A stretch of 39,035 nt of DNA from a virus. The stretch lies in UHGV virus genome UHGV-0212837, one strand, 5' to 3'. The notes under the pieces were generated by a model that saw nothing but the letters and a program-made list of their open reading frames with translations, was not told the DNA's origin and did no database searches. Position 1 is the first letter of the stretch. Each line of letters starts with the position of its first letter. Below, one piece after another: positions 4,223 through 38,853 of the stretch. The position numbers were made by a program, and so were the translations under genes.

Positions 4223-4484
4223 TTTCTCTGAGCTTATTTCCTTCAAAAAAGACAGAGAAGAAATGCGGACTGAATCTGTCTATTACGTTCAACACCGGAA
4301 TAAACGCTCGGTGCTTGATCAGGAGTTGATTATTACCGGAGACCTGGCATTCAGAACATATAAGGCCAGCATGGAAATGAAGGATTTCCCTAAATGTGGT
4401 TCTGAAAGAGAAGCCGCGTTAAAGCTGGCTGAGTGGATGCAGAGAATGGCTGCTGCAATTGAGAATTACTGGAGCGAACCATAA
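4215..4484 (+). CDS. Nin-region hypothetical protein (NinY-like position, 89 aa)
   Basis: ORF overlapping ninF end and ninG start. Confidence 0.5.
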
Positions 4485-5095
4485 TGGCTAAACCAGCGCG
4501 AAGACGATGTAAAAACGATGAATGTCGGGAATGGTTTCACCCTGCATTCGCTAATCAGTGGTGGTGCTCTCCAGAGTGTGGAACCAAGATAGCACTCGAA
4601 CGACGAAGTAAAGAACGCGAAAAAGCGGAAAAAGCAGCAGAGAAGAAACGACGACGAGAGGATCAGAGACAGAAAGATAAACTTAAGATTCGAAAACTCG
4701 CCTTAAAGCCCCGCAGTTACTGGATTAAACAAGCCCAACAAGCCGTAAACGCCTTCATCAGAGAAAGAGACCGCGACTTACCATGTATCTCGTGCGGAAC
4801 GCTCACGTCTGCTCAGTGGGATGCCGGACATTACCGGACAACTGCTGCGGCACCTCAACTCCGATTTGATGAACGCAATATTCACAAGCAATGCGTGGTG
4901 TGCAACCAGCACAAAAGCGGAAATCTCGTTCCGTATCGCGTCGAACTGATTAATCGCATCGGGCAGGAAGCAGTAGACGAAATCGAATCAAACCATAGCC
5001 GCCATCGCTGGACTGTCGAAGAGTGCAGGTCCATCAAGGCGGAGTATCAGCAGAAACTCAAAGACCTGCGAAATAGCAGAAGTGAGGCCGCATGA
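4484..5095 (+). CDS. ninG: NinG / Rap recombination-promoting nuclease
   Basis: Cys-rich N-terminus and basic stretch typical of lambda NinG; 203 aa. Confidence 0.85.
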
Positions 5096-5298
5096 CGTTC
5101 TCAGTAAAAACCATTCCAGACATGCTTGTTGAAGCATACGGAAACCAGACAGAAGTAGCACGCAGACTGAAATGTAGTCGCGGTACGGTCAGAAAATACG
5201 TTGATGATAAAGACGGGAAAATGCACGCCATCGTCAACGACGTTCTTATGGTTCATCGCGGATGGAGTGAAAGAGATGCGCTATTACGAAAGAATTGA
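5092..5298 (+). CDS. ninH: NinH
   Basis: [26 protein letters not shown]... matches recalled lambda NinH; ATGA overlap. Confidence 0.8.
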
Positions 5299-5941
5299 TG
5301 GCAGCAAATACCGAAATATTTGGGTAGTTGGCGATCTGCACGGATGCTACACGAACCTGATGAAAAAACTGGAGACGATAGGATTCGACACCAAAAAAGA
5401 CCTGCTTATCTCGGTTGGCGATTTGGTCGATCGCGGTACAGAGAACGTCGAATGTCTGGAATTAATCACATTCCCCTGGTTCCGAGCTGTACGTGGAAAC
5501 CATGAGCAAATGATGATTGATGGCTTATCAGAGCGCGGAAACGTCAATCACTGGATGCTTAATGGCGGTGGCTGGTTCTTTAATCTCGATTACGACAAAG
5601 AAATTCTGGCTAAAGCTCTTGCCCATAAAGCAGATGAACTTCCGTTAATCATCGAACTGGTGAGCAAAGATAAAAAATATGTCATCTGCCACGCCGATTA
5701 TCCTTGTGACGAATACGAGTTTGGAAAGCCAGTTGATCATCAGCAGGTAATCTGGAACCGCGAACGAATCAGCAACTCACAAGACGGGATCGTGAAAGAA
5801 ATCAAAGGCGCGGACACGTTCATCTTTGGTCATACGCCAGCAGTGAAACCACTCAAGTTTGCCAACCAGATGTATATCGATACCGGCGCAGTGTTCTGCG
5901 GAAACCTCACATTGATTCAGGTACAGGGAGAAGGCGCATGA
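5276..5941 (+). CDS. ninI: NinI Ser/Thr protein phosphatase (lambda PPase-like)
   Basis: GDLHG, GDLVDRG, GNHE metallophosphatase motifs; start at internal ATG 5276 (MRYYERIDG). Confidence 0.85.
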
Positions 5942-6561
5942 GACTCGAAAGCGTAGCTAAATTTCATTCGCCAAAAAGCCCGATGATGAGCGACTCACCA
6001 CGGGCTACGGCTTCTGACTCTCTTTCCGGTACTGATGTGATGGCTGCTATGGGGATGGCGCAATCACAAGCCGGATTCGGAATGGCTGCATTCTGCGGTA
6101 AGCATGAACTCAGCCAGAACGACAAACAAAAGGCTATCAACTATCTGATGCAATTTGCACACAAGGTATCGGGGAAATACCGTGGCGTTGCAAAGCTTGA
6201 AGGAAATACTAAGGCAAAGGTACTGCAAGTGCTCGCAACATTCGCTTATGCGGATTATTGCCGTAGTGCCGCGACGCCTGGCGCAAGATGCAGAGATTGT
6301 CACGGTACAGGCCGTGCGGTTGATATAGCAAAAACAGAGCAGTGGGGGAGAGTTGTTGAGAAAGAGTGCGGAAGATGCAAAGGCGTCGGCTATTCAAGGA
6401 TGCCAGCAAGCGCAGCATATCGCGCTGTGACGATGCTAATCCCAAACCTTACCCAACCCACCTGGTCACGCACTGTTAAGCCGCTGTATGACGCTCTGGT
6501 GGTGCAATGCCACAAAGAAGAGTCAATCGCAGATAATATTTTGAACGCGGTCACACGTTAG
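5938..6561 (+). CDS. Q: Late antiterminator Q
   Basis: 207 aa, essentially identical to recalled lambda Q. Confidence 0.95.
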
Positions 6562-6603
6562 CAGCATGATTGCCACGGATGGCAACATATTAACGGCATG
6601 ATA

Positions 6604-6632
6604 TTGACTTATTGAATAAAGTTGGGTAAATT
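6604..6632 (+). promoter_or_regulatory. Late promoter pR' (-35 TTGACT 6604-6609, -10 TAAATT 6627-6632) with overlapping Q-utilisation region
   Basis: Hexamers with 17-bp spacer immediately downstream of Q, as in lambda. Confidence 0.6.
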
Positions 6633-6639
6633 TGACCCA

Positions 6640-6831
6640 ACGATGGGTTAATTCGCTCGTTGTGGTAGTGAGATAAAAAGAGGCGGCGATTACTACCGAT
6701 TCCGCCTAGTTGGTCACTTCGACGTATCGTCTGGAACTCCAACCATCGCAGGCTGAGAGGTCTGCAAAATGCAATCCCGAAACAGTTCGCAGGTAATAGT
6801 TAGAGCCTGCATAACGGTTTCGGGATTTTTT
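6640..6831 (+). ncRNA. Short pR' leader transcript (lambda 6S RNA analogue) ending at tR'
   Basis: Inferred from pR' start about 6640 and tR' hairpin; not a bacterial SsrS. Confidence 0.4.
6776..6831 (+). terminator. tR' terminator
   Basis: CCCGAAAC...GTTTCGGG stem followed by ATTTTTTAT. Confidence 0.6.
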
Positions 6832-7274
6832 ATATCTGTGCAACAGGTAAGAGCATTCTCCCTTATGGGGCTTGGCTTAAATGCACCGAGTGCTCTTATC
6901 GTTGTGGTGAAGCTCAATGGCGAGCTAGCAGATAGGCGACAGTGAAAATACTAGTCATGTAGCTGACCGCCGCGCGTACTGCAATCGGCAGCGCACCGAT
7001 GGAAGCCGGTTCGATTCCGGCCGCCACAACCCAAACTGAGCCGTAGCCACTGGCTATCCTGAATTCATCAGTGATAGTTACGCTGCGGCCTTCTACACAT
7101 GACCTTCGTGAAAGCGGGTGGCATGAGGTTGCGCTAACAACCTCCTGCCGTTTTGCCCGTGCATATCGGTCACGAACAAATCTGATTACTAAACACAGTA
7201 GCCTGGATTTGTTCTATCAGTAATCGACCTTATTCCTAATTAAATAGAGCAAATCCCCTTATTGGGGGTAAGAC

Positions 7275-7598
7275 ATGAAGATGCCAGAAAAACATGACCT
7301 GTTAGCCGCCATTCTCGCGGCAAAGGAACAAGGCATCGGGGCAATCCTTGCGTTTGCAATGGCGTACCTTCGCGGCAGATATAATGGCGGTGCGTTTACA
7401 AAAACAGTAATCGACGCAACGATGTGCGCCATTATCGCCTGGTTCATTCGTGACCTTCTCGACTTCGCCGGACTAAGTAGCAATCTTGCTTATATAACGA
7501 GCGTGTTCATCGGCTACATCGGTACTGACTCGATTGGTTCGCTTATCAAACGCTTCGCTGCTAAAAAAGCCGGAGTAGAAGATGGTGGAAATCAATAA
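7275..7598 (+). CDS. S: Holin S (S107/S105 dual-start MKM motif)
   Basis: 107 aa, near-identical to recalled lambda S. Confidence 0.95.
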
Positions 7599-8058
7599 TC
7601 AACGTAAGGCGTTCCTCGATATGCTGGCGTGGTCAGAGGGAACTGATAACGGACGTCAGAAAACCAGAAATCATGGTTATGACGTCATTGTTGGCGGAGA
7701 GCTATTCACTGATTACTCCGATCACCCCCGCAAAATTGTCACGCTAAACCCAAAACTCAAATCAACTGCAGCCGGACGCTACCAGCTTCTTTCCCGTTGG
7801 TGGGATACCTACCGCAAGCAGCTTGGCCTGAAAGACTTCTCTCCGAAAAGCCAGGATGCTGTGGCACTGCAGCAGATTAAGGAACGTGGCGCTTTGCCGA
7901 TGATTGATCGCGGTGATATTCGTCAGGCAATTGACCGTTGCAGCAATATCTGGGCTTCACTGCCGGGCGCTGGTTATGGTCAGTTCGAGCATAAGGCTGA
8001 CAGCCTGATTGCAAAATTCAAAGAAGCAGGCGGAACGGTCAGAGAGATTGAGGTATGA
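7582..8058 (+). CDS. R: Endolysin R (lytic transglycosylase)
   Basis: 158 aa, near-identical to recalled lambda R. Confidence 0.95.
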
Positions 8059-8513
8059 GCAGAGTAACCGCGATTATTTCCGCTCTGGTTATCTGCATCA
8101 TCGTCTGTCTGTCATGGGCTGTTAATCATTACCGTGATAACGCCATTACCTACAAAGCCCAGCGCGACAAAAATGTCAGAGAACTGAAGCTGGCGAACGC
8201 GGCAATTACTGACATGCAGAAGCGTCAACGTGATGTAGCAGAACTCGACGCCAGATACACAAAGGAGCTTGCTGATGCTAACGCGACTATCGAAAGTCTC
8301 CGTGCTGATGTTTCTGCTGGTCGTAAGCGCCTGCAAGTCTCCGCCACCTGTGCAAAGTCAACGACCGGAGCCAGCAGCATGGGCGATGGAGAAAGCCCAA
8401 GACTTACAGCAGATGCTGAACTCAATTATTACCGTCTCCGAAGTGGAATCGACAGGATAACCTCGCAGGTTAACTACCTGCAGGAATACATCAGGACGCA
8501 ATGCCTTCGATGA
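8055..8513 (+). CDS. Rz: Spanin inner-membrane subunit Rz (mosaic: lambda-like N-terminus, divergent C-terminus)
   Basis: N-terminal TM segment; first ~75 aa lambda-like, remainder diverges. Confidence 0.85.
8269..8460 (+). CDS. Rz1: Spanin outer-membrane lipoprotein Rz1, embedded in the +1 frame of Rz
   Basis: Signal peptide with lipobox LVVSAC, proline-rich mature region; start may be an internal ATG. Confidence 0.6.
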
Positions 8514-8857: not shown

Positions 8858-9400
8858 ATGAACTACCCAACCGTTGTTAACGATATAGATTTCAGAGACC
8901 TAATTTTTGTAGCAAACAACGATCCGGTTACAGATTCTTTTATGGTGGCAAAAGCATTTGGAAAGCTGCCGAAGAACGTGGTTCGTGACATTGAACGAAC
9001 CATAGAAGCTTGCCCTCCTGAGTTTGATGCAAAGCTCAACTTTGAGCTTTGCTATAAAAACAATGAGTTACAGAATGGTAAGCCGCAAAAATTCTACCGT
9101 CTCCGCAAGGATGGGTTGATGCTTTTGGTTATGTCCTACACCAAAAAAGAAGCAATGCGTATCAAAATTGCTTACATCAACGCATTTAACTGGATGTACG
9201 CGATGCTTCAGGTTGGTCATCGTCAATTTGAAGAAGAGAGAAATGCCGTAATGCTGGAGTACATGAAAGAGAAGGATGTTGCCAGCATGTCAGGTCGCCT
9301 GCTTAATCGCTGGGGAAAAATTAAGAAGCCTCAGCTACTGGCGAGAATTGAACGCCTTGAACAGCACGGGCAAACCGTAATCCCCGGACTCACTAATTAA
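8858..9400 (+). CDS. rha: Rha-family phage regulatory protein (P22 orf201-like)
   Basis: Internal ATG at 8858 with AAGG SD; N-terminal Rha-like motif; position between lysis and packaging as in P22. Confidence 0.6.
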   Translation: MNYPTVVNDIDFRDLIFVANNDPVTDSFMVAKAFGKLPKNVVRDIERTIEACPPEFDAKLNFELCYKNNELQNGKPQKFYRLRKDGLMLLVMSYTKKEAMRIKIAYINAFNWMYAMLQVGHRQFEEERNAVMLEYMKEKDVASMSGRLLNRWGKIKKPQLLARIERLEQHGQTVIPGLTN

Positions 9401-9628
9401 CGGCAGTACAGCGAAACAACCCAAGCCAGTAAGTGGGGAAAATAACACTGGCAGCCACTGAAAGATGAACCTCCTGCCTTATGGCAAAAAAGATTCTTTG
9501 TGGTGGCGGACTGATGGAAAGACATCGGTTATTGCAGAGACCATTCAATGAGTGGTCTCGACAATGGCTTATACCCTACACGGGATAACTTAACTGATAT
9601 CCCTTTTAACGGATAAACGGAGCCAACA

Positions 9629-34530: not shown

Positions 34531-35135
34531 TAAGCAGCAGCTCCTTCTAATTCGTCTCGTCTGATGTTGTAAACGTCCTGCGCTTTGTGCTGCTCCGGTG
34601 TGCCTTCGAGCATCTTCCACGCTTTGGCGAACGCCTGTTTAAGCTCTTCCACGGTGTTTTTCTGCAATGCTGCGTCAGTGAATGCTTTTAGAACCTGTTC
34701 AGGTGTAGGTGATGGTTTTGATTGCTTTGCTGCTGCGTTCTGCTGATGTTTATGCTCGTCGGTATCTGCATCTTTCGCATCATCAATGCCGAACAAACCA
34801 TTGAGGCAATACTTGCGTGCATAAGAGCTTGTAGCTCCCGTAACTTGTGCAGAATCCATTCCTTTCTTGCTTTCTTCCTCTCGTGCAAGAGCGGTTGCTG
34901 TATGACTGTTTTCGCCATCAGTAATAGTTGCCGTTGCTTTCACGTAATACCGATCACCAATCAACACAACTTCATCGCTGATTGATAAAAACAGACCATT
35001 CAGTAACGGCTTAACGCCTTCAAGAATATCTTCGCAGCTTCTGTATTTATATTTGCCGAATGAGTTGTACTGATTCTTTGGCGCGTTCAGATTCTCCTGA
35101 ATAGCTGCCAGTCTTGCGTAAAATTCTTTGCTCAT
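34530..35135 (-). CDS. erf: Erf single-strand annealing recombinase (P22 Erf-like)
   Basis: MSKEFYARLAAIQENLNAPKNQYNSFGKYKYRSCEDILEG matches recalled Erf N-terminus; track start is an upstream TTG. Confidence 0.8.
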   Translation of the reverse strand: MSKEFYARLAAIQENLNAPKNQYNSFGKYKYRSCEDILEGVKPLLNGLFLSISDEVVLIGDRYYVKATATITDGENSHTATALAREEESKKGMDSAQVTGATSSYARKYCLNGLFGIDDAKDADTDEHKHQQNAAAKQSKPSPTPEQVLKAFTDAALQKNTVEELKQAFAKAWKMLEGTPEQHKAQDVYNIRRDELEGAAA

Positions 35136-35391
35136 ATGATTGTTCTCAGAATGGACACGGCCCAAGGAAATAACGCTGATTTAATACTTCGACTCGGGAC
35201 AAATTAAGGCATACCCGCATTCCTTCGCGGTCGCCATTATGGCGATACCAGAGAGCTTTCTGCGTGTACATGCGTCTCTGTAACTTGCTCTCCTTCACTG
35301 TGGTTGCAAGTGACATGAATATCTCCTTCGTTACCGATTAATTCTTTCATCTGACGAATGAATTCTTCGTCTGACCAGTTATCTGTAAAAC

Positions 35392-35544
35392 TCATTTCCT
35401 GCGATACCACGGCAGGTTGATAGCTGATTTCATCGCTTTATTTGCTTCAAGCCACATTTTGGAATCACCAATAAATCGGGCTATTACTGCTTTGTTTTGT
35501 GCTGCACGAAGCATCTGGTGATTGATGGCTATTTCATTGCGCAT
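35392..35544 (-). CDS. kil: Kil-like small protein (50 aa), not in track
   Basis: Hand translation MRNEIAINHQMLRAAQNKAVIARFIGDSKMWLEANKAMKSAINLPWYRRK; GGAGG SD; FIGD(S/E)KM motif recalled from lambda Kil. Confidence 0.45.
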   Translation of the reverse strand: MRNEIAINHQMLRAAQNKAVIARFIGDSKMWLEANKAMKSAINLPWYRRK

Positions 35545-35663
35545 AACGCCTCCAGTTGTTTCTTTGCTGCTCTGATTAATTGTTTAACTCGGCGTGATAA
35601 TTCAGATTCGTGCGGGTAGAAAGCGGACATGACGCCGCTACCCGCGAGCTGAAAGTGCATCAT
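35529..35663 (-). CDS. cIII: CIII-like FtsH inhibitor (44 aa)
   Basis: MMHFQLAGSGVMSAFYPHESELSRRVKQLIRAAKKQLEALCAMK resembles the lambda/P22 cIII core; AAGGAG SD. Confidence 0.65.
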   Translation of the reverse strand: MMHFQLAGSGVMSAFYPHESELSRRVKQLIRAAKKQLEALCAMK

Positions 35664-35738: not shown

Positions 35739-36107
35739 TCAGGCGGCTTTGATAGTCATATCATCTGAATCAAATATTCCTGATGTATCGATATCGGTAA
35801 TTCTTATTCCTTCGCTACCATCCATTGGAGGCCATCCTTCCTGACCATTTCCATCATTCCAGTCGAACTCACACACAACACCACATGCATTTAAGTCGCT
35901 TGAAATTGCTATAAGCAGAGCATGTTGCGCCAGCATGATTAATACAGCATTTAATACAGAGCCGTGTTTATTGAGTCGGTATTCAGAGTCTGACCAGAAA
36001 TTATTAATCTGATGAAGTTTTTCCTCTGTCATTACGTCATGGTCGATTTCAATTTCTATTGATGCTTTCCAGTCGTAATCAATGATGTATTTTTTGATGT
36101 TTGACAT
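35739..36107 (-). CDS. Hypothetical protein (122 aa)
   Basis: ATG with GAGGAT SD immediately downstream of a terminator hairpin. Confidence 0.5.
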   Translation of the reverse strand: MSNIKKYIIDYDWKASIEIEIDHDVMTEEKLHQINNFWSDSEYRLNKHGSVLNAVLIMLAQHALLIAISSDLNACGVVCEFDWNDGNGQEGWPPMDGSEGIRITDIDTSGIFDSDDMTIKAA

Positions 36108-36302: not shown

Positions 36303-36752
36303 TTACTTAACCAATGACGCTGCATATTCAATTAGGAATAACTTAGGTGCCAGCCAAATTTTTAACCATGTCATATTGGCTACTACAGAAATAATAAAAC
36401 TGAACCATAGAATAAAAACTGCTACTAATGGTAAGACAAAACCACTTAACCTACCGTCACTTTCCCAAAGCATAGTTGGTTTGTATTTAGGCTGTCCATT
36501 ATCGCATGAGCGTCCTTCATTATCGAACTTACCAATTTCAACTTTTTTGCACTGTTTCTTCATAAACCAAATAACCAGCGGAATTGTTGAAATGGCTATT
36601 AATGTTTTAATCAGGCTATCAACCATATTCCATACCAGCAACTGATGAACAACATCCGGAATCTGTGCCTGGCTAAATGAAACAGCCGCGTCTATTCCAT
36701 TGCTGGCTTTTTGCAGTAGTTCTACGAGAATCTTGTTTGCTTGTTCTTCCAT
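36303..36752 (-). CDS. Membrane protein (149 aa, predicted TM segments); candidate superinfection-exclusion protein
   Basis: GAGGTG SD; hydrophobic helices; position immediately downstream of N. Confidence 0.55.
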   Translation of the reverse strand: MEEQANKILVELLQKASNGIDAAVSFSQAQIPDVVHQLLVWNMVDSLIKTLIAISTIPLVIWFMKKQCKKVEIGKFDNEGRSCDNGQPKYKPTMLWESDGRLSGFVLPLVAVFILWFSFIISVVANMTWLKIWLAPKLFLIEYAASLVK

Positions 36753-36760
36753 ATATCACC

Positions 36761-37087
36761 TCAAATAAGTGGTTTGCTGCCTAATTTCATTTTCTGGCGA
36801 CCAACACAAGTCACACCCATTTCACTGCGTGGCTTGCTGTACCATGTGCGCTGATTCTTGCGCTCAATACGCTGCAGGTTGCTTTCAATCTGTTCGTGGT
36901 ATTCAGCCAGCACCGTAAGGTCTATCGGATTCAGTGCGCTTTCTACTCGTGATTTCGGTTTGCGATTCAGCGAGAGAATAGGGCGGTTAACTGGTTTTGC
37001 GCTTACCCCAACCAACAGGGGATTTGCTGCTTTCCATTTAGCCTGTTTCTCTGAGCGACGTTCGCGGCGGCGTGTTTGTGCATCCAT
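36761..37087 (-). CDS. N: Antiterminator N
   Basis: 108 aa from internal ATG 37087, near-identical to recalled lambda N (MDAQTRRRERR...); AGGAGA SD. Confidence 0.9.
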   Translation of the reverse strand: MDAQTRRRERRSEKQAKWKAANPLLVGVSAKPVNRPILSLNRKPKSRVESALNPIDLTVLAEYHEQIESNLQRIERKNQRTWYSKPRSEMGVTCVGRQKMKLGSKPLI

Positions 37088-37244
37088 CTGGATTCTCCTG
37101 TCAGTTAGCTTTGGTTGTGTGTGGGAGTCGTAGTCCTGAACGAAAACACCCCGCAATGGCACATTGGCAGCTAATCCGGATTCGCACTTCCGGCCAATGC
37201 TTCGTTTCGTATCACACACACCAAAGCCTTCTGCTTTGAATGCT

Positions 37245-37275
37245 GCCCTTCTTCAGGGCTTAATTTTTAAGAGCA
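37245..37275 (-). promoter_or_regulatory. nutL (boxB GCCCUGAAGAAGGGC at 37245-37259; boxA-like UGCUCUUA at 37268-37275)
   Basis: boxB read on the minus strand matches the recalled lambda nutL boxB; boxA upstream at the expected spacing. Confidence 0.7.
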
Positions 37276-37314
37276 TCACCTTCATGGTGGTCAGTGCGTC
37301 CTGCTGATGGCTAA

Positions 37315-37343
37315 ATAGTACGATTTGTACTTTATCGAGTCAA
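37315..37343 (-). promoter_or_regulatory. pL promoter (-35 TTGACT 37338-37343, -10 TACTAT 37315-37320) overlapping an operator palindrome
   Basis: Hexamers with 17-bp spacer on minus strand; AGTACGATTTGTACT palindrome 37317-37331. Confidence 0.6.
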
Positions 37344-37404
37344 TACAAAATGTTCTAAATATAATTAGTTTTTTATAACGCTTTGTATTTAATGGGTTTA
37401 TATT

Positions 37405-37438
37405 TTGGAAAAAGAAAACCCGACGCTAAGGTCGGGTT
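37405..37438 (-). terminator. Terminator immediately downstream of cI
   Basis: CCCGAC-loop-GTCGGG hairpin with U-rich tract; no rex-like genes between cI and pL. Confidence 0.5.
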
Positions 37439-37468
37439 ATTGTTGTGTGTTTTAGAGTGGTGAGGCTG

Positions 37469-38164
37469 TTAACTAAATGTCTCTTCAGGCCACTGGCTGG
37501 CGATAACTTTCCCTACTACGGAACAGCTATCATTGCATGGAATCATTGGATATTGCGGGTTTAGTGGCTGGAGGAACACCTGACCGCTATCCCTGATCAG
37601 TTTCTTAAAGGTAAACTCGTCACCACCAAGTCTAGCTATGCAGAAATCACCTGGCTCAACAGCCTGATCAGGGTCAACGAGAATTAACATCCCGTCAGGA
37701 AAGCTTGGCTTGGATCCTGTTGGCGCGGTCATGGAATTACCTTCAACTTCAAGCCAAAACGCACAATCACTGGCTTTTTTGGTTGTGCTGACCCATCTCT
37801 CCGCATCACCTTTGGTAAAGGTTCTAAGCTCAGGCGAGAACATCCCGGCCTGAACATGAGAAAAAACAGGGTACTCATATTGTTTTTTAACGGGGGCAGA
37901 TGAGTATTCGCCAACAGGTGAAAATGTACCGTCGTGGTTGAATGAGACGTTATCAATACCAAGGTATTTAAACACCACACCAATCTCGTCAAGAGATGGA
38001 TGACGAGATCCGCGCAACCAGTGACCAATTCCACCCTGCGTCATACCAAGCTCTTCAGCTAACTTCTCTTGAGTTATGCCGAGCTCTTTCATTCTGGATC
38101 TAGCCAGTTCATACCATTTCATTTTCATACCCTTATTATTACGCTCTGTACTAAAACCATCCAT
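37469..38164 (-). CDS. cI: CI-type repressor (S24 peptidase domain near-identical to lambda cI; heterologous HTH domain)
   Basis: C-terminal ~130 aa match recalled lambda cI including the Ala-Gly cleavage context; first ATG at 38164, track begins at an upstream TTG (38170). Confidence 0.85.
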
Positions 38165-38184
38165 GCACAAGATGTATTTTTTGT

Positions 38185-38213
38185 TTGCATTCTAAAAGTA
38201 CATATCGTATTAT
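38185..38213 (+). promoter_or_regulatory. pR promoter (-35 TTGCAT, -10 TATTAT) overlapping an OR operator copy at 38197-38211
   Basis: Hexamers with 17-bp spacer; operator related to the OL palindrome (2 mismatches in 15). Confidence 0.5.
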
Positions 38214-38239
38214 TGTTTCATGGTTACTATGGAGGGCAT

Positions 38240-38455
38240 ATGAGCAACCTACGAAAATATCGAGAGTCACTGAATATCTCTCAAACAACACTTGCTAAGG
38301 CAGTTGGATGCACACAGGGAGCTATCGGACATTGGGAATCTGGTCGTCGCTTCCCAGACCTTAAAACATGCCGTGCTCTTGTTGAGTGCCTAAACAAGTT
38401 AGGCGCAAAAGTCAGTCTTGATGACGTGTTCCCGCCGGAACACAAAGCCGCTTAA
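38240..38455 (+). CDS. cro: Cro-like repressor (71 aa HTH)
   Basis: ATG 38240 with GGAGGG SD; HTH ISQTTLAKAVGCTQGAIGHWESG; divergent from cI across OR. Confidence 0.7.
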   Translation: MSNLRKYRESLNISQTTLAKAVGCTQGAIGHWESGRRFPDLKTCRALVECLNKLGAKVSLDDVFPPEHKAA

Positions 38456-38463
38456 GACATTCC

Positions 38464-38495
38464 CGCTCTTACACATCCCAGCCCTGAAAAAGGGC
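38464..38495 (+). promoter_or_regulatory. nutR (boxA CGCTCTTA 38464-38471; boxB GCCCTGAAAAAGGGC 38481-38495)
   Basis: Matches recalled lambda nutR elements, between cro and cII. Confidence 0.7.
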
Positions 38496-38574
38496 ATCAA
38501 ATTAAACCACACCTATGGTGTATGCATTTATTTGCATACATTCAATCAATTGTTAGCTAAGGAAATACTTACAT

Positions 38575-38853
38575 ATGCAACTTACAAGTACTCGCAAGAA
38601 AGCGAATGCAATTACAAGCAACATCCTGAATCGAATTGCTGTACGTGGTCAGCGAAAGGTTGCCGACGCGTTAGGGGTTAATGAATCGCAAATTTCGCGA
38701 TGGAAAGACAGCTTCATCCCCAAAATGGGAATGCTTCTGGCTGTTCTTGAATGGGGTGTTGAAGACGAGGAGTTGGCGGAACTGGCTAAGCAAGTAGCCA
38801 GAATGCTGACAAAAGAAAAAGCCCCGAAGAACGGCGAATTCTTCGAGGCCTAA
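38575..38853 (+). CDS. cII: CII transcriptional activator
   Basis: 92 aa; ...ESQISRWK...IPKMGMLLAVLEWGVEDEE... closely resembles lambda CII. Confidence 0.85.
   Translation: MQLTSTRKKANAITSNILNRIAVRGQRKVADALGVNESQISRWKDSFIPKMGMLLAVLEWGVEDEELAELAKQVARMLTKEKAPKNGEFFEA
38608..38621 (-). promoter_or_regulatory. CII-binding site TTGC-N6-TTGC (pRE -35 region) inside the cII N-terminal coding sequence
   Basis: GCAATTACAAGCAA on plus strand equals TTGCTTGTAATTGC on minus; position as in lambda pRE. Confidence 0.45.

Follow-up and report, generated by a model that had tools for sequence, protein, structure and literature searches.

A VT2-Sakai-type immunity repressor sharing its C-terminal domain with lambda cI in a P22-like Escherichia coli phage genome

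The virus genome UHGV-0212837, a stretch of 39,035 nucleotides (nt) to which we refer as the window, carries on its minus strand a cI-type repressor gene that is very likely the maintenance repressor of a VT2-Sakai-type lambdoid immunity module in a P22-like (Lederbergvirus) temperate phage or prophage of E. coli. The open reading frame (ORF) extends from an ATG at 38164 to 37469 and would encode 231 amino acids (aa), with an alternative start at TTG 38170, while the likeliest form of the gene occupies 37469-38128 (minus strand, 219 aa plus stop), a start argued from operator and promoter geometry and from the N-termini of homologs. A first-pass annotation of this DNA, made from its letters alone, had described a hybrid repressor in which a lambda-like cleavage domain is fused to a non-lambda DNA-binding domain, and had taken this for a heteroimmune specificity built on a lambda backbone. 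The hybrid make-up of the protein stands, but its newness does not, as the module formed by the left operators (OL), a terminator, cI, the right operators (OR) and cro is an already known and common immunity type. Domain content, catalytic motifs, operator layout and conservation can be read directly from the sequence, and it is on these that the assignment is built.

The domain content of the protein is that of the self-cleaving phage repressors of the LexA and lambda-cI type, in which a helix-turn-helix (HTH) domain is combined with a Peptidase S24 domain. Pfam searches identified PF01381 (HTH_3; expectation value (E) 8.3e-11) over residues 10-57 and a full-length PF00717 (Peptidase_S24; E 1.8e-28) at the C-terminus, and the ORF was assigned to phrog_4, transcriptional repressor, in PHROGs (E 2e-62). 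In the numbering of the 219-aa form, residues 1-83 (37880-38128, minus strand) make up the N-terminal DNA-binding segment, which is of the VT2-Sakai rather than the lambda type, and residues 84-219 (37469-37879, minus strand) comprise the linker cleavage site and the lambda-type C-terminal segment for S24 activity, dimerisation and cooperativity. Lambda cI has the same Ala-Gly cleavage site (VQAGMF), serine (GNSM) and lysine (FKKL) at the aligned positions, where the residues are A111-G112, S149 and K192, the last two forming the Ser/Lys dyad.

Comparison with lambda cI, taken from NC_001416 (37227-37940), reveals a sharp division between the two halves of the protein. The stretch from YEYPVFSH onward has 132 of its 136 residues (97%) in common with lambda cI, the four changes being S>C, E>D, E>D and G>S, which confirms the earlier statement that the C-terminal 130 or so residues lie close to the lambda protein. 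The underlying DNA (window 37475-37879 versus lambda 37233-37637) is 92.0-92.6% identical, with 27 synonymous and 4 non-synonymous codon differences. This homology starts abruptly at the TAT-GAG-TAC-CCT codons, approximately 10 residues N-terminal to the cleavage site, and the lambda-identical part coincides with the crystallised lambda cI fragments 2ho0 (cI101-229), 1f39 and 1kca, and also matches 8gmu in the PDB; in other words, the two repressors have their cleavage linker and C-terminal domain in common from residue 101 of mature lambda cI on (see also PDB entry 3bdn). Conversely, the N-terminal 83-95 residues align with lambda cI only as a generic HTH. Identity over this domain is 20% with a lambda-type protein in our homolog survey (P0034), and phmmer matches to lambda N-terminal-domain chains in the PDB range from E 7e-4 to 6e-3. 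A PDB search with the N-terminal domain alone returned distant HTH matches (8tac, 28tn and the lambda N-terminal domain; E 1e-4 to 1e-2) and no solved structure of its own specificity class.

The remaining hallmarks of lambda immunity (imm-lambda) are likewise missing from the module. The recognition helix and the rest of the N-terminal domain do not align with those of lambda beyond the HTH fold, the operators depart from the TATCACCGCCAGTGGTA family at half-site positions 4, 7 and 8, and neither a lambda-type Cro nor a rexA-rexB pair downstream of cI is present. The pairwise alignment to lambda cI that had been proposed as a check thus yields a true match in the C-terminal part and an HTH-only match in the N-terminal part, and the alignments and the half-site comparison together bear out that the N-terminal HTH domain, cro and the operators are not those of lambda. 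What the two phages share is layout, namely divergent cI and cro genes, tripartite OR and OL, a lambda-like N, nutL and nutR, and a homologous terminator; lambda differs in its N-terminal domain, which is a distant HTH relative, in its operator half-site, in its Cro and in carrying rexA and rexB.

The DNA-binding domain, Cro and the operators are instead the same, at the same positions, as those of VT2-Sakai and of the phage in AP005153. VT2-Sakai (NC_000902) and the phages AP005153 (Morioka, Shiga toxin 1 (Stx1)-converting) and AP005154 (Stx2-II) possess the same N-terminal domain with an identical helix-turn-helix, the same lambda-type C-terminal domain, and three OR and three OL sites at the same positions, with TAC/GTA cores kept and spacings of 25-26 and 33 base pairs (bp). 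Within the 83-aa N-terminal domain, the window protein differs from those of VT2-Sakai and the Stx1 phage at 3-4 residues, none of which falls in the helix-turn-helix (the DNA is 94-95% identical), while 10 aa differ across the 231-aa cI (8 within the 219-aa form) at about 92% nt identity. Cro (38240-38455, plus strand, 71 aa; HTH_3, E 1.4e-12), preceded by a GGAGGG ribosome-binding site, has no alignment to lambda Cro; 70 of its 71 residues are the same as in the Cro proteins of the Stx1 phage and VT2-Sakai, and its nearest solved structure is 28tn_A (E 2.4e-16). The immunity regions of Nil2, 2851, 1717 and the PA-series Stx2a phages are of the VT2-Sakai type as well. These phages are Stx-converting Sepvirinae, whereas the window phage is P22-like, and they differ further in that cI and OL are separated by about 1.4 kb with a 173-aa ORF, compared with the terminator alone in the window. 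We also observed that the reference cI of VT2-Sakai (NC_000902 10900-11595) is interrupted in its helix-turn-helix by an in-frame TAG (MT*GG) and appears in the annotation as two fragments, while the cI allele of the Stx1-converting phage is intact.

The closest relatives of the module are found in other P22-like coliphages. Megablast identity is 98.8-99.4% to Dewey, vB_EcoP-720R6, Louie and vB_EcoP-683R2 and about 98% to phi458, compared with 92.5% to Nil2, AP005153, AP005154, 2851 and the PA-series Stx2a phages. Dewey, Louie, vB_EcoP-720R6 and vB_EcoP-683R2 have essentially the same module, including a terminator directly after cI, and the same virion type, and Dewey and Louie are Lederbergvirus, that is, P22-like phages of E. 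coli (PMC12243541); the group differs from the window in its cII and replication genes, which diverge from 38.58 kb on. Over 37222-38777, Dewey is 98.6% identical by blastn, with few point differences overall: its N-terminal-domain DNA is 100% identical, its cI differs by 1 aa and its Cro is exactly the same. In phi458 (OP434518 8636-10964) the match to the module comes in two pieces spanning approximately 1 kb beyond the query, which indicates an insertion within the immunity region of that phage.

This immunity type is also widespread. The N-terminal domain occurs at an identity of at least 95% aa in 63 phage records, and the 1,152-bp module is present at a coverage of at least 80% in 776 of 5,426 complete E. 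coli genomes (14%, or about one in seven). A prophage of E. coli NCCP12480 (NZ_CP068680) matches the window at 100% in its N-terminal domain, in cro and in all six operators. That prophage (2510954-2515105) is decayed and adjoins dsdC and torI; truncation has left pseudogenes of N and of a virion gene (for the packaged-DNA stabilization protein), while its cI-OR-cro module is intact, which suggests that the module has been kept as an immunity cassette. More distant relatives include the C1 proteins of the Salmonella P22-like phages g341c and epsilon34 and related enterobacterial prophage repressors, which have an N-terminal domain of the same family (about 55% identity; MNWYDIAKQRI...) and a lambda-type C-terminal domain with about 80% identity to that of the window. 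The g341c record itself notes a similarity to Stx1-phage CI, though these proteins form another specificity class, with a recognition helix and annotated binding sites unlike those described here. A 2023 paper (PMC10742460) credits Fattah et al. 2000 with the observation that VT2-Sakai cI has high C-terminal and low N-terminal homology to lambda cI, and PMC3064807 and PMC4587872 yielded nothing specific on VT2-Sakai-type cI.

The arrangement of putative operators and promoters is that of a lambdoid immunity switch, in which divergent cI and cro genes flank operators predicted to act over PR and PRM, with a second set at PL. A promoter scan found a PR-like promoter on the plus strand (-35 TTTGCA at 38184-38189 and -10 TATTAT at 38208-38213, with an 18-nt spacer) and a PL-like promoter on the minus strand (-35 TTGACT at 37343-37338 and -10 TACTAT at 37320-37315, with a 17-nt spacer). 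All six operators are 17 bp in length with a core of TAC-N5-GTA, and they fall into a right and a left cluster. OR1 (AAGTACATATCGTATTA, 38196-38212) overlaps the PR -10 hexamer; OR2 (ATGCACAAGATGTATTT, 38163-38179) is annotated in AP005153 and differs by one nucleotide in Dewey, where the site has a perfect TAC; and OR3 (TATTACGCTCTGTACTA, 38137-38153) has a perfect TAC-N5-GTA core, lies over the predicted PRM -10 region at the position of an AP005153 'putative operator', and has its core kept in VT2-Sakai. On the left, OL1 (TAGTACGATTTGTACTT, 37316-37332) overlaps the PL -10 hexamer and is conserved in VT2-Sakai, OL2 (CAATACAAAATGTTCTA, 37341-37357) matches an annotated AP005153 operator and differs in VT2-Sakai in central bases only, and OL3 (TATAACGCTTTGTATTT) occupies 37374-37390. 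All six sites match, in position, the three OR and three OL 'putative operator' annotations of AP005153.

Both the half-site and its conservation set these operators apart from their surroundings and from lambda. The half-site consensus here is (T/A)A(G/A)TAC(A/G), as against TATCACCG in lambda; positions 2, 5 and 6 are common to both, while positions 4, 7 and 8 are not, position 4 being C in 12 of 12 lambda half-sites and T in 9 of 12 window half-sites. Across the OL region (window 37296-37406 versus VT2-Sakai 9319-9429), overall identity is 78%, yet only 4 of 51 operator nucleotides differ, compared with 20 of 60 in the spacers, and the operator differences affect central or edge bases save for one at OL3 position 3. 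This pattern is a clear sign of selection acting on the operators, as expected of functional sites.

The same geometry bears on the start of the repressor, which is probably the ATG at 38128, giving a 219-aa product (MKMKWYEL...). Counted from this codon, OR2 occupies -35 to -51 and OR3 occupies -9 to -25, compared with -34 to -50 and -11 to -27 in lambda, a PRM geometry that agrees to within 1-2 bp for both sites. In lambda the PRM message begins at the cI ATG. By our reading of the sequence, a predicted weak PRM (TGGATG, 17 nt, AATAAT) would begin transcription at ATG 38128 or close to it, and the PRM message is probably leaderless from this codon. Homologs point to the same start: among 85 proteins with the W[YF]EL motif, 72 begin 2-4 residues ahead of it, and the N-terminal extensions in the remainder, and in other subfamilies, are mutually unrelated in sequence. 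Because the lambda-like operator and promoter geometry and the homolog N-termini both favor ATG 38128, we prefer the 219-aa, probably leaderless, product. An AAGGG ribosome-binding site is additionally present directly ahead of the pair of ATG codons at 38128 and 38122.

Taken with the catalytic motifs, this layout suggests how the module may operate. Repressor dimers at OR1 and OR2 and at OL1 and OL2 would turn off PR and PL, and repressor at OR2 would activate the weak PRM. The lambda-type C-terminal domain would provide dimerisation, pairwise cooperativity and probably looping between OL and OR. On DNA damage, RecA filaments would be expected to stimulate self-cleavage at the Ala-Gly bond and lead to prophage induction, after which Cro would act on the same operators.

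Several points weigh against parts of this assignment. Our account of operator occupancy, cooperativity and PRM activation, like that of the leaderless start and of RecA-dependent cleavage, draws on analogy with lambda. The perfect TAC-N5-GTA core is not enriched, with 9 occurrences in the window against 10 expected; because the core by itself is not rare, the operators were assigned by their clustering, their overlap with promoters and their conservation, and core enrichment was not used as evidence. The OR sites are spaced 33 and 26 bp from center to center, compared with 24 and 23 bp in lambda, and OR1 lies 10 bp farther from PRM than it does in lambda; because of this difference in spacing, it is uncertain which operators would form the cooperatively binding pairs. 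The predicted PRM hexamers (TGGATG and AATAAT) were not reported by the promoter scan. Finally, the 231-aa form is the one used in all database annotations (GenBank and PGAP) as well as in the first-pass annotation. The gene product could then be the protein that starts at the in-frame ATG 38164, its 12 extra residues being part of the repressor, and the reading frame stays open through this extension in VT2-Sakai and the Stx1 phage as well. We nevertheless consider this improbable. A start at 38164 would put OR3 and the predicted PRM within the coding sequence, and the AP005153 annotation, which does place an operator inside the cI coding sequence, is in this respect self-contradictory. Compared with the Stx1 phage, the 36 nt of the extension have 4 differences, each of them non-synonymous and outside the conserved operator core, and the homolog N-termini and the ribosome-binding site described above likewise argue for the downstream start. 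The 231-aa model thus probably carries 12 spurious residues (38129-38164, minus strand).

If the protein is a hybrid relative to lambda cI, it is not an exceptional one. In our homolog survey, at least five classes of N-terminal domain were joined to a C-terminal domain that matched the window's at 80% identity or more: the window's own, one from Enterobacter and Kluyvera (MKTEWYEL...), that of the Salmonella phages g341c and epsilon34 (MNWYDIAKQ...), that of lambda (MSTKKKPLT...) and a further one from Salmonella and E. coli (MKTMHEIIGERIK...). The mixture of domains is the normal state of this repressor family rather than a recent event. Pairwise nt identity among the C-terminal domains of the window, VT2-Sakai and lambda is 90-93%, and codon differences between lineages amount to 27-34 synonymous and 1-5 non-synonymous changes, which indicates strong purifying selection on this domain. 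We considered lambda as the donor of the C-terminal domain, a direction that these mutual identities leave unsupported; because the three domains are about equally distant from one another, lambda appears to be one holder of a shared C-terminal domain and not its evident donor.

These observations bear directly on the reading in which a foreign DNA-binding domain, cro and operators were recently grafted onto lambda to create a new heteroimmune specificity. The 97% identity of the C-terminal domain to lambda cI, the 94-98% identity of the flanking N-nutL and nutR segments to lambda, and an arrangement that resembles a classical imm substitution in lambda would all fit such an event. However, the lambda C-terminal domain (92.0% nt to the window) is no nearer than lineages of the VT2-Sakai immunity type are to each other (90.3%), leaving no sign of recent transfer, and the same module is found in many deposited phages in addition to the E. 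coli genomes counted above. Its operators were already annotated in AP005153, and its hybrid make-up was, according to PMC10742460, already credited to Fattah et al. 2000. An exact match of the N-terminal domain and operators to a known immunity type had been named at the outset as the observation that would speak against a new specificity, and exact matches of this kind are present in public records, with N-terminal domain and operators at 100% in NCCP12480 and the N-terminal-domain DNA at 100% in Dewey. The notion of a lambda backbone also fails, given that the virion genes are P22-like and that lambda homology is confined to limited segments. A recent graft is, in our estimation, very improbable.

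Heteroimmunity toward lambda is plausible given the differences in DNA-binding domain and operators, which leaves the question of residual cross-talk. The module could be functionally cross-immune with lambda, through residual recognition or through mixed oligomers assembled by way of the common C-terminal domain, in which case the term heteroimmune would be wrong; we regard this as unlikely. In its favor, the two share half-site bases A2, A5 and C6 and the Gln that opens the recognition helix, and their HTH segments resemble each other (the lambda segment is MGMGQSGVGALFNG). According to PMC10742460, cross-immunity between VT2-Sakai and lambda is attributed to Fattah et al. 2000, and lambda cI bound VT2-Sakai operators in gel shifts with an apparent dissociation constant (Kd) of 3.7-6.4 uM. 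On the other hand, half-site position 4 separates the two phages as described above, and positions 7 and 8 differ too; the affinities given there are up to about 30-fold weaker than those of lambda's best sites and fall in a micromolar range that may reflect non-specific binding. The in-frame stop in the reference VT2-Sakai cI also complicates any immunity test with that prophage, including published ones. A related and similarly doubtful idea is that repressors of co-resident 'heteroimmune' prophages, for example of the lambda and VT2-Sakai types, form mixed dimers or mixed cooperative assemblies via their shared C-terminal domain.

The DNA surrounding the module delimits it precisely. On the left, a lambda-homologous flank (36786-37309, minus strand, 93.7% to lambda 35062-35583) contains N (ATG at 37093; N36 domain, E 6e-25), nutL boxB (37245-37259) and the PL leader, and its end at 37309 corresponds to what we take to be the PL start site in lambda. 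On the right, homology resumes at 38462, just past the cro stop, with a flank (38462-38577, plus strand, 98.3% to lambda 38247-38362) that contains nutR boxA (38464-38471), boxB (38481-38495) and the tR1 region. The immunity-specific DNA accordingly runs from 37310 to 38461.

Downstream of cI, the first-pass annotation had placed a terminator directly after the gene and found no rexAB-like genes, both of which proved correct. The intrinsic terminator of the cI transcript (37438-37417, minus strand) has an 8-bp stem with 5 G-C pairs followed by TTCTTTTTCC, and its stem-loop begins 30 nt past the cI stop. Only 78 nt separate this stop from OL3, which begins at 37390, with the terminator lying in between; because terminator and OL3 follow so closely, there is no space for rexAB or any other gene. 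The terminator (window 37411-37446) is 89% identical to lambda 35799-35834, directly downstream of the rexB stop, and its stem includes a compensatory pair (CCCGAC/GTCGGG in the window versus CCCGGC/GCCGGG in lambda). We take this lambda site to be the end of the cI-rexA-rexB transcript (tIMM). On this comparison, rexAB is best viewed as an optional insert, placed after cI and ahead of a terminator that is conserved. This slot is empty in the window, and in VT2-Sakai and the Stx1-converting phage it is filled by the unrelated 173-aa ORF (orf22/b63).

As a whole, the window has the mosaic make-up typical of P22-like coliphage genomes, at approximately 39 kb. Its virion and tailspike genes (8300-30000) are P22-like, with 95-96% identity to IME10, APC_JM3.2, Louie and Dewey, and lambda homology is limited to a short stretch at the ren/nin junction, the nin/Q/lysis genes, some early-left genes, N-nutL, the terminator, the cI C-terminal domain and nutR. 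The nin/Q/lysis genes (4481-8324) are 95-97% lambda-like. The cII gene (38575-38853; PF05269, E 1.7e-42) contains in its 5' part a candidate CII site of PRE (TTGC-N6-TTGC, 38608-38621, minus strand), identified by position only, and a second such motif lies within Q at the place equivalent to lambda PaQ (6225-6238, minus strand); with 4 occurrences in the window against 3.7 expected, the motif is not above chance, and what is suggestive is where these two copies lie. Between N and an ea10-like DUF2528 gene, at a frequent location of exclusion genes in lambdoid phages, we observed a 149-aa ORF (36303-36752, minus strand) that looks membrane-protein-like by eye, has no Pfam match and belongs to phrog_3054 (unknown function). 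An Rfam scan of the whole window at gathering thresholds returned no matches.

The module is common, its sequence and annotation are already public, and earlier literature covers its hybrid relation to lambda cI; its value as a discovery is small. Its use lies elsewhere. The start used in databases likely adds 12 spurious residues and buries OR3 and PRM in coding sequence, and the module offers a clean natural case of domain-boundary mosaicism, with a junction about 10 residues before the Ala-Gly site. The shared C-terminal domain makes cross-talk among the repressors of different prophages, including those of Stx phages, experimentally testable. If mixed assemblies do form, they would couple the immunity and induction of co-resident prophages, could explain the cross-immunity between VT2-Sakai and lambda that PMC10742460 attributes to Fattah et al. 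2000, and could influence the induction of Shiga-toxin prophages in polylysogens.

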